Below are positions 6,863-52,660 of a stretch of 64,000 nt of DNA, one piece after another; position 1 is the first letter of the stretch, and every line of letters begins with the position of its first letter. Made by a program: the position numbers and the translations under genes. Under the pieces are notes generated by a model. That model made no database searches and was not told the origin of the DNA. It was given only the letters and a program-made list of their open reading frames with translations. This stretch comes from Eledone cirrhosa (lineage: Eukaryota): assembly GCA_964016885.1 (NCBI GenBank), contig OZ024740.1, positions 141,980,001-142,044,000 on the forward strand. The letters run 5' to 3'.

Positions 6863-7525
6863 AGATTGGAATCGGTGCTCTGAAATAGCGATATATATAT
6901 GAATGTGTATATAGTGTATTTTGCAATACACTGTATGCTTAATTAAAATCATTTTGAAGACCATACGCTATTGTTTTAGAGTAGTGACAGTCTCACTTAC
7001 TTTAATTTTCAGCAAACAGGGGAGATAAAGCTGACAGAGCCCTGTTTCGCACTTTTTAGGGCTTACCATAGCTAAGTACTCCGCCTATTTGCTGAAAATC
7101 ATGAATGTTTGATTCTTATAGAATTCTAGTAATAATCAGTAACGGCTCTGTATAATCAGTTCCTGATTATTACTACAATTCTATAAGAATCAAACATTCA
7201 TGATTTTCAGCAAACAGGCGGAGAACTTCGCTTTGATAAGCACCAACAAGTGCGAAACAGAGCTCTGTCAGCTTTATCTCCCCTGTTTGCTGAAACTTAA
7301 AGTAAGTGGGACTGTCACTACTCTAAAACAATAGCGTAAGGTCTTCGAAATGCTTTTAATTAAGCATACAGTGTATTGCAAAATACACTATATACACATT
7401 CATATATATATTGCTATTTCAGAGCACCAATTCCAATTTTCAATTTCTGCTTGACCGGCAACCGCTCTGTATAATCAGTTCCTGATTATTACTAGAATTC
7501 TATAAGAATAAAACATTGATGATTT
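6863..7525. mobile_element. Large fold-back PLE-end element (~275-bp arms plus partial tandem unit)
   Basis: 6866-7139 is inverted relative to 7163-7436; 7462-7525 repeats 7142-7207; related copy at 51070-51390; (TA)n flanks. Confidence 0.85.
7205..7295 (+). ncRNA. Type-I HHR with U3-A8 core and extended stem I
   Basis: TTTCAGCAAACAGG..GCT / AGC..CCTGTTTGCTGAAA; TTGATAA 7233-7239; GCAC/GTGC; GAAA; palindrome CAGAGCTCTG; GTC cleavage after 7269. Confidence 0.8.
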
Positions 7526-8121
7526 ATATATATATATATATATATATATATATATATATATATATATGGAAAACAATGAAACGAAATTTCATTTCTCACT
7601 CTTAGTACGGCTGATACCTAAATATAAGTATGTATACGTACATAGATATATGTGTACAGACGCACAGTAGTATGTATATATATATATATACATACATGCA
7701 CACATATATATATATGTACGTATGGGTTTGCCGAACATTTATTATAATGTTCTGTTTGTTTGTAAACAAACATCCCGAATTACGCTGTACAGTGCTCGGC
7801 ACCATCGTCGCCCTTTTGTTCAACACTGACACAGGTACGATGTACTAGTTTCAAGCTTATTAGTTATCGTTAGCATCGTATACCTTTCTGTCAGATGATT
7901 GAACGTCTGAAAGTAAATACTTTCCTTATGCATATTAACGGCTGAGCAGCCTAATTTGCATATCGAGTGAGTTAGTCGGCCGGGTATACCGAAAATGATA
8001 AATGGAAAAGATCGAAACGAAATTTCATTTCTCACTCTTACTTAGAGTATATATATATATATATATATATATATATATATATATATATATATATATATAT
8101 ATATATATATTTGCTGTTGAA

Positions 8122-8240
8122 AGAGCTCAGCCATCGAGCCCAGATTGTCTACTATATTTACACTCTACTATCCCAAGTGTCGAGTACTTTTTTGAATAAT
8201 GGTCTTTCTAGATTAAATCTGGTATAACCCTGATCTACCT
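8122..8240 (+). mobile_element. Diverged PLE-end fragment of the 18325/35370 family
   Basis: GAGCTCAGCCATCG..CACTCTACTATCCCAAGTGTCGAGTACT matches ~35445-35510. Confidence 0.55.
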
Positions 8241-10039
8241 CTACCCCCTTCTCTCTCTCTCTCTCTCTCTCTCTCTCTCTCTCTCTCTCTCTCTCTCTCT
8301 CTCTCTCTCTCTCTCACACAACATATATATATATATATATATATATATCGCAATCACTGCATCCTTTCTCCCTGTCAAAATTCTATTCTGTAACTCTTTC
8401 TGTTTCTTTCTGTACACAGGACACAACACTCATATACACACACATGCACACATACATACTTACACACGTGCATACATACATATATACATACATATATACA
8501 CATATGCATGCATCCATCCATCCATACGTATATACATACATACATATATTTATACATGCATATATGCACATATTTATACATGGCTGAAGTCTAATGACTG
8601 AAACCAGTAAAAGAATAAAAGAATTGTATATTTATGTGTGTAAGTGTATGTATACACACGCGCGCATATATATATATATATATATATATATATATATACA
8701 CCTGCATATATATATATACATATCTGCATATATATATATATATTTCTTTTTTATCCTCTGTCTTACACGGTCATTATTCTACGTCTTTTTATCTCACTAT
8801 CTACCCCAGCTCCTTTCTCATTATATCCGTTTCATTGAAGTCGATGACAATAAGCTGTTTATCCTCGTCTAAGTGATGATACGACGCGAGTTACTTTTCT
8901 TGTCAGTACTGTTTTTCTATCTGATATATTTTCTCTGTATTTTTTGTTTCTCTAACGATAGTACTATATCAGCCTTTCTATCATTCTGTAATTCTTTTGC
9001 TTGTTGTATATATTTGCTCTTCGTTATTTTATTAAGTACAAGAGTGATGAAGTATGGAGTTATTGAGAATTATGGCAGTAGACAGCTACCTGCATGCTTC
9101 TCATTTTTGAAGACAAAACGCTTGTTATATTGCAATTTAAGCATTTATAAGATGATTATGAATTAGGTCTGTAACTTAGGCAATGAAGTATGAGATCTTA
9201 ACTACATTTTAAATGTAGGGTTGGGAGGAACCATACCATCGATCTGTTCATATTTCAGGAAGATTAACAGAAACAGGAATAATGGTTCTCTTAGGTGGAA
9301 AGTTTATAGTTAATGGGTGAATGACTTTCTTAAACATGATTCTATAATTACAGGGGTGGATGATTTCCATAAACTGCAATTAAAAAAAACAAAAAATAAA
9401 ATGTTGCTAGCCACGAATTTTGTAAGCCTTCACATTGAAGTCTTTATTTTTCATGTGGTACATTAAAAACAGCCCAATAGAAACATATACGTTATCGAAT
9501 TCCCTAATTTAGTATGATAGAATTCTTATTAATTAAGTGTTCTTTTGAATGAAATGATACAGTGTCTTGGTTTCGAATTTCCCTTTCTACAAGTTACTTT
9601 ACGTATGCTACTAATAGCTTTGGGAAAGGCATGAAACCTGCAGGACATCCTGGGCAAGTTTCTTTTACTATAGCCTCGTGTTGACGAATGTCTTGTGAAT
9701 GGAATTTGGTAGATGGAAGCTGCTGAAGCTCGTTGGTCTGAGCTAGGGTGTAGAACGTGGAACTAGCTGTAAATATGCAGTAGATATGTTCCTACATGCG
9801 CAAGAAGGGAGTATGTGAGCCAGTGTAATTGAAATAATTATATATATATTGTTATACTTGGGGAGGGTCATATTGTTGTTATAATATTGTCAGAAATAAT
9901 AACAGAACACACTCACTGTTTGGTTGGTTTTCGCTTCTGTATCTTTTATATCTTCACAGTTAATTCATTCGGTCCTCAATGTTACCATTGACTGACCAAC
10001 GGTAAAAAATACAGATATAATATAGATATATGCACATAT

Positions 10040-11300
10040 ATATAGTCTAACAAAGTTCTTTCGTTGCACAGCTGCAACATCATCAGTCGTGCTATTATGT
10101 TCCTCCTGTTGTATTCTATATCTGCGCCATCTTTATTTTATCTGTTTATTTATTTATTTATTTTTGTCTTCTCTGCGCATGCGTTTGCGTGTGTGTATAG
10201 TGTTTGGTGTGTGTTCGCGTTTGGGTGAGTGTGTTTTGGATATTGTATTCTATCTTAATTTACTAGTGTGTGTTTATATGTGTTTGTTGTTATTGTGCTT
10301 GTGTATATATTTATTTATTTATTTATTTATTTATATTTCTCTTAAGTCAGTATTGTTTATTTGGGTGTTGTTGTTATTCCATTCATTTTTTCTGTTTATC
10401 TTTGGCCTTCTAAGTTCTATTTCACTTGCCTCTCTGATTTGCCTATCTGCTGGGCCATTTATATGTTTAGATATTATTTTAATTTCTATGTTGCCTATGT
10501 TACCGTCATGTTGTTGTCTGGCATGTTCGTATAGTACTGAACCGTTTTTTCGTCCTTTTAGTTCCCCCCCAGTGTTGGTCTATCCTTTCTCCTATGCTAC
10601 GAGCTGTCTCGCCTATGTATGTTGTTGTCATGTTTCTGCAAGTACCCTCTATACCTCTTATGCTATAGACTACGTTTCTAGTTTTACAGTTTATCCGGGG
10701 GTTTACTTTACATATAATACATTTCCTATTAGTACAGTGGGTTTTCTTAAAAGGGTATGTTTTGCTGATCAGGGATTTATGGTAGTTCCTGGCTTTTCTA
10801 CCACTTTAATCTTTAAGTGGGTCTTTCTCGGGGCCTTTCTACACTGGTCAGCTAATTTCCCTCCAGGGGTATCGTCCACGAACATGACACTCTGGTATCT
10901 CTGGTTGTCGTATCATGAGGTGGCTTTCCCTATCTTATGTTTAGTCCTATCTAAGCTATTCCATGTTTGCTCCTGTATAATGGGCAAATTCCTTTCATGT
11001 CTAGTTCTATGAGGGTCTTATACTTCTCCGTGGCTCCTTCGTATACTCTAATTCTGTCTCTTTGGTTGTAGCCAGAGAACTGCATGCGGTTGATGAAGTG
11101 TTGGATGTGTCTTTCCATTTCTGTCGGGTCGCACATGCAGAACACGTTCTTCATCACTCGTACCAAGTCTGCGATCAGAATATTAAACTTAGCACTATTC
11201 GACATTGCTGAGTTTTTGCGTATCAGGTATTTGGAGGCCATGGGTTTAGCGTAGTGTGAGTGGAGAATTTGGGCCCTCTCGTCTTTAGTTTTAATCCAGA
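10040..11300 (-). pseudogene. 5'-truncated Neptune-type Penelope-like element (RT thumb, Cys-rich linker, GIY-YIG), frameshifted
   Basis: HYAKPMASKYLIRKNSAMS.., IKVVEKPGTTI, CTNRKCIIC..NC, NVVY..YIGETARSIGERIDQH; degenerate HHR (CTGATGA-TGTTGCA..TGCAAC-GAAA) at ~10050-10090. Confidence 0.85.
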
Positions 11301-51390: not shown

Positions 51391-51447
51391 ATATATATAT
51401 ATATATATATATATATATATATATATATATATATATATATATATATA

Positions 51448-51870
51448 TTAAAATAACAGATTAAAGTTTAAGCAAAGAATCGGTGCTTTCACCCTTAACG
51501 GGATCTTCTGAAACTAACAAAGTCAATCTGTAAACGCAGAACTGGATATTTCAAAAAACGTTGCAATCGGAGGAAGACAGGAAGGCGATACTTTGGTTCG
51601 TTGAAACGTTCGCTGGCTAAGAACGGGAAAAAACGAATATAATACGTCATTAATAGGAGCGGTGAAAAACAATTACGCGTAAAGACAGAACCACGTTTAT
51701 GGTATAATAGAGGTCGTAGACTAATGTTCTCTTAGGTGGTGCATAGAGACGTTCTCTGGCAATGAAGGAAAAAAATGAAGATAATACATCATATGTGGAG
51801 CGTGGAGAACAATAGCACGCAAAGACAAAACCACGTAAATGGTATAGCAGTAGTCGTAGACTAAATTCAA
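51448..51870 (-). mobile_element. pLTR fragment of the 50195 family; further fragment at 52263-52430
   Basis: Near-identical to 50290-50520. Confidence 0.8.
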
Positions 51871-52457
51871 ACTGTTATTTTAATATATATATATATATAT
51901 ATATATATATATATATATATATATATATATATATATATATATATATATATATATATATATATATATATATATATATATATATATATATATATATAGTTTA
52001 ATAAATAAACAGAGAACAAAGCAGAAAAACTAAGAGGCAGTACAAATGATATTAGTATTAGTTTCACGCTTGTGAGTAGGGGTGGGGGACTATATATATA
52101 TATATATATATATATATATAATGTATCTAATGTATATTTACCTCTGGCACTTACATAGAGCACTTTTCACTCCTATGACTTTTTCAATTTTCAACGGAAA
52201 CTTCAATACTATATATATATATATATATATATATATATATATATATATATATATATATATATATAGTAATAATAATAAATGCGAAAACTAAAATCCGAAG
52301 AGCGCTCGATAAGGATAATATATATATAAAAATATATAAAACCATAGAGCAAATATTTATGAAAATAACAGATTAAAGTTTAAAGTTTAAGCAAAGAATC
52401 GCTGCTTTCACTCTTAACGCGATCTTCTGCAATTTCTACACCAATACATATTATTTT

Positions 52458-52660
52458 CATTTGATAATGCATAAAAATGCTAAAACCGGTAATAGACAAT
52501 TATTAAATATATAAATCAATAAATAAATGCCATTGTTAATTAATAAATAAATCAACTAATACCTTAACACTTCACACAAAGAAAAAAAGAGGGAAATAAA
52601 TAAAAAGGGAAAAACAAATATTTTTCTTCCTAATAATCGTCTTTTTCTCCCTGTTTTCAT
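52458..52660 (+). mobile_element. PLE-end fragment of the 4629 family
   Basis: Matches 5298-5520; TTGATAA at 52461. Confidence 0.75.

Follow-up and report, generated by a model that had tools for sequence, protein, structure and literature searches.

Here we analyse a 64-kb window of the Eledone cirrhosa genome (OZ024740.1:141,980,001-142,044,000, forward strand; the genome spans 3.0 Gb and is rich in microsatellites), in which the heptamer TTGATAA recurs where a hammerhead ribozyme core would canonically read CTGATGA. Given the anatomy of the motifs, their family-wide cores, the elements that host them and the pair-preserving changes between their subfamilies, we consider it quite likely that these sites are type I hammerheads of Penelope-like elements (PLEs) that have inherited a U3-A8 core, that they self-cleave and thereby cut long or multimeric transcripts into unit-length RNA, and that any Watson-Crick pair is allowed between positions 3 and 8. 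These two positions form a tertiary Watson-Crick pair (PMC9901934, PMC3088659), and the 2'-OH of nucleotide 8 acts as the general acid in cleavage, where a role has been assigned to G8 (PMC6155905). Because the 3-8 pair places this 2'-OH, some activity can survive its replacement by another Watson-Crick pair. The family labels A to J were coined in this analysis.

An initial annotation of the window had listed seven TTGATAA sites as catalytic cores. All seven could be located (7233, 11664, 12259, 18330 and 52461 on the plus strand; 51227-51221 and 4854-4848 on the minus strand), and each occupies the core position of a type I hammerhead: two of these hammerheads are intact, two almost intact and three decayed. 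By itself the heptamer shows no enrichment: it occurs 28 times in the window, shuffled sequences average 23.8, and 40 of 200 shuffles contain at least 28. The evidence for hammerheads comes from sequence context. A descriptor of the type I hammerhead with positions 3 and 8 left free returned nine matches in the window, namely four U3-A8 motifs, three canonical C3-G8 motifs absent from the initial list (4464, 27140 and 30946) and two others, whereas shuffled sequences gave at most 0.1 per class. The strict descriptor passes four of the seven sites, 7233, 51227 (minus), 11664 and 12259; the remaining three, 18330, 4854 (minus) and 52461, are decayed copies whose fellow family members fold as hammerheads.

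Might the sites nevertheless be chance matches of an A+T-rich heptamer that were read as hammerheads afterwards? The unremarkable heptamer count and the three sites that fail the strict descriptor would fit this idea, as would the Rfam scans: none of the sequences scanned (families A and B and the canonical hammerhead at 27140) gave a hammerhead match at the gathering score, and family B gave no hammerhead match. A scan of the whole window likewise returned no hammerhead among the 150 of 311 rows listed, which were mostly microsatellite-driven microRNA matches. However, the canonical hammerhead at 27140 also went unmatched, so that a miss in Rfam carries little weight. Descriptor matches in a genome sample lie far above those in shuffles (15 versus 0.2), each family comprises thousands of copies with full anatomy, and family-level anatomy and covariation already contradict the idea, which makes it exceedingly improbable.

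Consistent with the proposal that at least four unrelated families use this core, a self-BLAST of the window detected no DNA similarity between families A, B, C and D, and C and D belong to different PLE clades. A genome-wide check of their cores showed that U3-A8 is the majority in all four; a CTGATGA consensus, which the initial annotation had itself named as a reason to abandon its proposal, is thus not what these families carry. At the family level, A, B, C, D, E and J all possess the core boxes N3 U4 G5 A6 N7 N8 A9, G12 A13 A14, A15.1-U16.1 and H17 in type I order. The three helices are complete in A, B and C and, judged by eye, in E, whereas stem I is weak or absent in D and stem II is short and contested in J. 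Core counts refer throughout to the first 100 matches listed per pattern and were tallied by hand for A, lineage C and J; reversed-pattern controls gave 0 matches in the genome searches for A, B, lineage C, D and E.

Family A is a 319-nt unit of 34% G+C that lacks an open reading frame (ORF) and occurs as monomers, dimers and inverted pairs. A genome pattern with positions 3 and 8 free matched 1,385 times, and of the first 100 listed, 96 carry a TTGATAA core and none CTGATGA. The covariation noted initially in stem II, GCAC/GTGC at 7240 and GTAC/GTAC at 51220-51207 (minus), is present in the window and recurs across the genome, where the second pair of this stem is T-A in 73, C-G in 19 and mismatched in 8 of the same copies. 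This is true covariation between subfamilies; as it separates two of them, it counts as one event. A majority-type copy matches the Rfam model Hammerhead_HH9 over its full length (26.5 bits, E 5e-5), and the window copy at 7233 gives a weaker match to this model (20.7 bits, E 0.0039), both below the gathering score of 52. The segment suggested for cleavage assays, 7205-7295, does hold a family A hammerhead, yet this copy departs from the family majority at two positions of its own, in loop 1 and the 5' strand of stem I.

The unit of family B is longer (591-595 nt, 42% G+C) and also ORF-less. A genome pattern search found 6,002 exact matches, with TTGATAA in 99 of the first 100 listed; a word-based DNA search, in which very common words are skipped, returned 0 genome candidates. 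Arrays of B reach five units. Their ends, read from 30 loci that overlap and hence represent fewer insertions, are distinctive: the 3' ends lie about 80 or about 245 nt beyond the predicted cut site, the 5' ends vary, and an inverted 5'-truncated arm is frequent. Such ends match the insertion pattern of PLEs (PMC8557442), and the two 3' ends resemble the two reverse-transcription start sites of an Anolis PLE (PMC11167929), although the gap between them is longer in B. Copying that starts inside the unit and crosses the junction would fit a circular or multimeric template. In a diverged copy, the hammerhead matches at 43 of 44 positions compared with 447 of 546 elsewhere (Fisher p 0.003, for one sequence pair). 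No sense-strand PLE ORF was linked to A, B or J in the loci examined. In the window, a 5'-truncated PLE fragment with a GIY-YIG domain and a decayed canonical minimal hammerhead (10026-11346, minus strand; motif at 10086, minus) is joined to a 45-nt inverted piece of family B, and this junction may record a template switch between the two RNAs.

Families C and D reside in PLEs that encode protein. PLE clades were assigned from diagnostic motifs and pairwise identity; the reverse transcriptase (RT) in the window and the family D ORF fit the Hydra and Neptune/Nematis clades of Craig et al. 2021 (PMC8557442). The family C motif lies about 800 nt downstream of the endonuclease (EN) in the window and at loci L226, L229 and L233, and RT together with EN was found at L223, L227 and L233. 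The RT at L227 is 43% identical to that of a near-complete Hydra-type PLE in the window (RT at 27352), which carries the Hydra-clade marks RWR, DKT and a CxCx5C linker. This comparison element looks intact except for one stop between RT and endonuclease (28818) and has a canonical C3-G8 hammerhead in each of its direct repeats (27140 and 30946), with a related canonical motif at 4464. Pfam returned 0 families for five PLE pieces, and the Atlas yielded RT and GIY-YIG clusters. In the genome sample, at least five links from an endonuclease to a downstream hammerhead occur among the matches listed (93 hits kept), all of them canonical. Hydra elements have been reported to carry canonical hammerheads, in a study whose core search used CUGANGA (PMC8557442); family C, in contrast, is a Hydra-type element with U3-A8. 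In its relatives, stems I and III comprise 5 bp each, stem II is long and the cut site is a predicted GUC. The pattern for lineage C matched 3,324 times, and the first 100 listed comprise 76 U3-A8, 17 C3·A8, 4 U·G, 1 C-G and 2 other cores. Position N7 takes all bases among the 76 U3-A8 cores (28 A, 27 C, 15 T, 6 G).

Family D forms the 3' untranslated region (UTR) of a Neptune/Nematis-type PLE, the ORF of which has a DKG motif and a Cx4CxxC linker before the C-terminal GIY-YIG domain. Its motif lies downstream of EN in 9 of 20 EN loci, several of them with RT, and alignment of its protein with the Hydra-type RT is marginal (28 bits, for the C-terminal part). Among 848 matches, A8 is present in each of the first 100 listed and U3 in 19 of 20 loci; the closing pair of stem II is mostly U·U. 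The truncation of stem I that had been described initially is real, in that the stem is interrupted in one subfamily and reduced to about 1 bp in the other, to which the copy at 4854 (minus) belongs. The window copy at 52461 has lost G12, which leaves its core boxes incomplete. Family E is a related minimal motif with the same CCGG stem III, and its 4-bp stem I is intact in many copies. It has 13,506 exact matches, with U3-A8 in all of the first 100 listed, often stands in short inverted pairs (L355-L369) and was found downstream of a D-like endonuclease in 1 of 15 loci. The U3-A8 cores of D and E are probably shared by descent. A decayed relative of E in the window is missing from the initial annotation.

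How common is the variant? We sampled 119 stretches of 10 kb at even spacing (1.19 Mb) with a neutral descriptor, the thresholds of which were fixed after earlier output had been seen and which misses the window sites 51227, 4464, 18330, 4854 and 52461. The sample held 77 motifs: 56 C3-G8, 15 U3-A8 and two each of C·A, U·G and C·U, compared with about 0.2 in shuffles for C3-G8 and U3-A8 each. The 15 U3-A8 motifs are clumped, eight of them being family B copies in four stretches, and one is doubtful. Exact-pattern counts multiplied by the listed shares give an extrapolated lower bound of about 25,000 U3-A8 copies in six families. The view that a normally rare variant is common here therefore holds for its abundance, but it remains a minority (15 versus 56 canonical motifs in 1.19 Mb). 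A satellite (L087) that mimics a hammerhead core was excluded from the count. The sample also held further U3-A8 motifs of different architectures, sighted once each (L206:5572, plus; L072:9784, plus; L192, minus), and a common canonical family with a CTAG stem III (L081, L107, L120), which accounts for 14 of the 56 canonical matches and in which stem II is closed by U·U as in D and J.

Family J, which came from the genome sample and has no match in the window, exists with three different Watson-Crick pairs at positions 3 and 8. Its ORF-less tandem unit spans about 530 nt at 34% G+C; stems I and III of the hammerhead are 9 bp each, stem II is short and closed by U·U, and the predicted cut site is AUA. 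A pattern anchored downstream of the core matched 2,427 times; of 30 loci inspected, 22 hold intact U3-A8 cores with all four letters at N7, three hold C3-G8 (one broken), two show other core changes and three are truncated. A core-anchored pattern, picked after copies had been viewed, matched 740 times (reversed control, 2), and the first 100 listed comprise 36 G3-C8, 31 U3-A8, 22 C3-G8 and 11 unpaired or wobble cores, so that positions 3 and 8 are paired in 89 of 100 compared with the 33% that the marginals predict. In an alignment of 26 of 30 core-anchored loci (one near-duplicate arm from each of two inverted pairs and two loci with a deleted or truncated stem III being omitted), the 3-8 columns read G-C in 10, U-A in 8, C-G in 5 and otherwise in 3, and a stem I pair covaries as well (U-A 13, C-G 12). 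We built a tree from the 53 of 60 loci with a locatable core, after removal of the core columns. Ten of 11 G3-C8 copies, together with two A·C copies, fall into one clade (support 100/97) beside a C3-G8 pair, and the U3-A8 copies lie in separate clades. The tree is midpoint-rooted and thus shows no direction of change; family J needs at least two compensated double changes, one of them composed of two transversions. When four contig sets were compared with a G3-C8 copy, two runs from a single study carried C3 and G8 as minority letters, at depths that agree; these runs may be the source of the assembly and hence lend no independent support. Of the other two runs, one gave a single contig outside the core and one gave none.

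A natural multi-copy series of G3-C8, U3-A8 and C3-G8 subfamilies, as found in J outside the window, appears to be new. No natural G3-C8 hammerhead was found in the literature searched, in which coverage of subscription papers is limited. Conceivably, J swapped its 3-8 pair among C-G, U-A and G-C while each subfamily stayed an active, amplifying ribozyme, which would make G3-C8 a natural eukaryotic core and cleavage a requirement for PLE-driven copying of circular RNA; we give this fuller proposal somewhat less than an even chance.

The same counts bear on a scenario of mutational drift in dispensable relics, whereby A+T pressure changed C3 to U and G8 to A in founders that spread without cleavage, and pairing is a by-product of common transitions. 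The window has 34% G+C, C to U and G to A are each transitions, a subfamily with C3·A8 appears to have been amplified, as has a subfamily of D lacking stem I, a PLE inserted in vitro without cleavage (PMC11167929), and Naiad PLEs spread without canonical hammerheads (PMC8557442). On the other hand, G3-C8 requires two transversions that are not driven towards A+T, stem pairs covary between subfamilies (stem II of A, stem I of J), N7 is free in lineage C while U3-A8 is held, and the hammerhead of B is better conserved than the remainder of its unit. Taken together, we regard drift as unlikely.

How might inherited U3-A8 cores have arisen and spread? We envision that two transitions, with a U·G wobble as the intermediate, turned C-G into U-A, a path that would be favoured in a genome of 34% G+C, and that this switch occurred at least twice or that 3' modules were exchanged between PLE clades. 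In A, B and J, a host ligase would close the cleaved monomer into a circle, and a PLE reverse transcriptase, initiating at two sites within the unit and continuing across the junction, would copy it; such copying would produce multimers, the two fixed 3' ends of B and inverted 5'-truncated arms. Most genomic copies, among them three of the seven window sites, would afterwards decay neutrally.

Several observations weigh against self-cleaving, interchangeable 3-8 pairs. All covariation counts rest on few inherited events, and every search pattern fixed some core letters, none having freed G12-A15 together with the 3-8 pair. In lineage C, C3·A8 is tied to G7 (of the A8 rows in which position 3 is C or T, 15 of 21 versus 2 of 72), an association that suggests a subfamily which amplified despite its mismatched core. 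In a tree of this lineage, the C3·A8 copies did not form one clade (five changes for five rows; bootstrap unsettled, flanks truncated); example copies are L314, L320, L322, L323 (at about 1503) and L070. Family D includes an amplified subfamily nearly devoid of stem I, and its modelled hammerhead fold lies about 10 kcal/mol above the minimum. In J, stem II is weak and faces competing helices; constrained folds are predicted 3-6 kcal/mol above the minimum and do not settle on stem II. Finally, the statement of the initial annotation that the C3U/G8A double change restores activity depends on context: in a complete double-mutant scan of a type III hammerhead, the G-C swap was the one double change to rescue activity, and the others stayed low (PMC9901934). 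Mutating the hammerhead of a PLE did not prevent insertion in vitro, and RNA ends were not found at its cut site (PMC11167929). The initial suggestion of selection for cleavage is thus borne out in part: A, lineage C, J and B bear signs of selection on the fold, but C3·A8, the stem I-less D subfamily and the in vitro insertion by mutants argue that it is not universal.

Alternatively, selection may maintain the fold because it cleaves weakly or with the help of protein, or because it binds PLE protein, and U3-A8 may persist because it slows cleavage and so spares uncut multimers or circles. An Anolis PLE hammerhead was cut only when protein was added (PMC11167929), minimal PLE hammerheads cleave poorly in vitro (PMC4209133), the scan cited above did not find rescue by U3-A8, and tolerance of C3·A8 in one subfamily would fit a relaxed catalytic demand. 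In family A, however, loops 1 and 2 keep the letters found in the canonical HH9 model, and stem III of C and J is stable enough for folding as a monomer. This alternative overlaps with the self-cleaving U3-A8 hammerheads that we favour, from which it differs only in rate, and we hold it to be less probable still than drift.

Hammerheads with U3-A8 have precedents. Perreault 2011 described the first natural covariation from C3-G8 to U3-A8, along with U10.1·U11.1 as a tolerated closing of stem II and weak stems II and III (PMC3088659); the available text gives several examples, compared with amplified families in Eledone cirrhosa, and leaves G3-C8 unmentioned. In Schistosoma mansoni PLEs, about 1,300 U3-A8 motifs stand beside about 2,000 canonical ones and were found by homology after a CUGANGA descriptor had missed them (Cervera and De la Pena 2014, PMC4209133). 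Two U3-A8 families appear in supplementary Fig. S3 of that work, and no G3-C8 row was seen in the portion of its supplement at hand. The covariant core and the setting in PLE repeats are common to both species. The cephalopod differs by at least six families that vary in architecture (among them canonical-type motifs, motifs with a long stem III and ORF-less units) and by a larger number but smaller share of U3-A8 (15 versus 56 canonical). As for G3-C8, engineered C3G/G8C partly or strongly restores cleavage in vitro (eLife 2023, PMC9901934; for a PLE hammerhead, Frangieh et al. 2024, PMC11167929), so that laboratory mutants there correspond to a natural multi-copy subfamily in J. A search of the cephalopod literature found no report of these motifs among the few papers listed.

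Families A, B and J further resemble metazoan non-LTR (long terminal repeat) retrozymes, which are ORF-less tandem units of low G+C and 170-400 nt with one type I hammerhead each, and for which PLEs have been proposed as the mobilising partner (Cervera and De la Pena 2020, PMC7229834). Family A lies inside this size range, whereas B and J are longer; the units described here also differ by their variant cores, their PLE-type inverted arms and the two fixed 3' ends of B.

Table 1. Hammerheads and associated elements (positions within the window; the loci in the last row lie outside it)
Feature	Position	Strand	Details
Family D inverted arms	4663-4850 and 5298-5485		hammerhead 4819..4860 is part of them
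Family D minimal hammerhead	4819..4860	-	core 4854-4848; U·U closing and 4-bp stem II; CCGG stem III; predicted GUA site after 4825
Family A insertion	6862..7525		inverted arms 6862-7143 and 7159-7440, plus extra piece of 319-nt unit
Family A hammerhead, decayed	core 7069-7063	-	within minus arm of insertion 6862..7525
Family A type I hammerhead	7205..7295	+	core 7233-7239 (U3-A8); stem II 7240-7253; GAAA 7254-7257; palindromic stem III 7258-7267; predicted GUC cut after 7269
Family B inverted piece, 45 nt	11302-11346		adjoins PLE fragment
Family B head-to-tail dimer, 595-nt unit	11341..12582	+	cut-to-cut monomer 11744-12338
Family B hammerhead 1	11659..11748	+	5-bp stem I; core 11664-11670; long stem II; palindromic stem III; predicted GUC cut after 11743; family-type, intact
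Family B hammerhead 2	12254..12343	+	core 12259-12265; predicted cut after 12338; core and stems intact
GIY-YIG endonuclease 3' end, 5'-truncated Hydra-type PLE	17121..17579	+	family C hammerhead in its 3' UTR
Family C hammerhead, decayed	18323..18423	+	core 18330-18336; predicted GUC cut after 18415; stems I and III substituted
Comparison element, near-complete Hydra-type PLE	26462..31052	+	RT 27352-28818; EN 28819-29589; 785-bp direct repeats
Family A hammerhead, GTAC/GTAC subfamily	51164..51255	-	core 51227-51221; predicted cut after 51191; one stem III mismatch
Family D minimal hammerhead	52455..52497	+	general base G12 changed to A; predicted inactive
Family E relative, decayed inverted pair	61833..62249		U3-A8 cores 62088 (+) and 61994 (-); A13 changed to C
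Family J loci	L325-L354, L265-L294		example L334:1491-1595

Beyond these features, the window holds a C3·A8 motif at 45748 (plus) that resembles canonical TATATA-loop families and a doubtful U3-A8 descriptor match at 38166 (minus). By eye, the ORF list also contains fragments resembling ORFs of other non-LTR retrotransposons (35718-36707, plus; 57549-59780, 40655-41086 and 46317-48473, minus). A dispersed repeat of 100-220 bp, possibly a short interspersed element, has at least eight copies in the window (among them 4952-5144, 6016-6240, 20890-21322, 37341-37455, 45514-45614, 54227-54447 and 56585-56805).

What do these hammerheads imply for the elements that carry them? Taken alone, the U3-A8 finding is a known variant in a further genome. 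The initial claim that the variant is invisible to CUGANGA-based searches is sound in that censuses limited to this core overlook about a fifth of the hammerheads in the Eledone cirrhosa genome, but both the variant and its invisibility had already been published. PLE-associated hammerheads may or may not depend on cleavage, given that they cut poorly in vitro and that one was dispensable for insertion. In this context, the C-G, U-A and G-C subfamilies of J represent a natural experiment in compensatory mutagenesis, which argues for formation of the 3-8 tertiary pair and for selection on it; a counter-case comes from an autonomous PLE with its C3·A8 subfamily. The ORF-less units of 530-595 nt with PLE-type insertion ends bear on the proposal that PLEs mobilise animal retrozymes. 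If true, the three-way exchange in J would constitute an in-genome demonstration that PLE-driven copying of circular RNAs requires cleavage.

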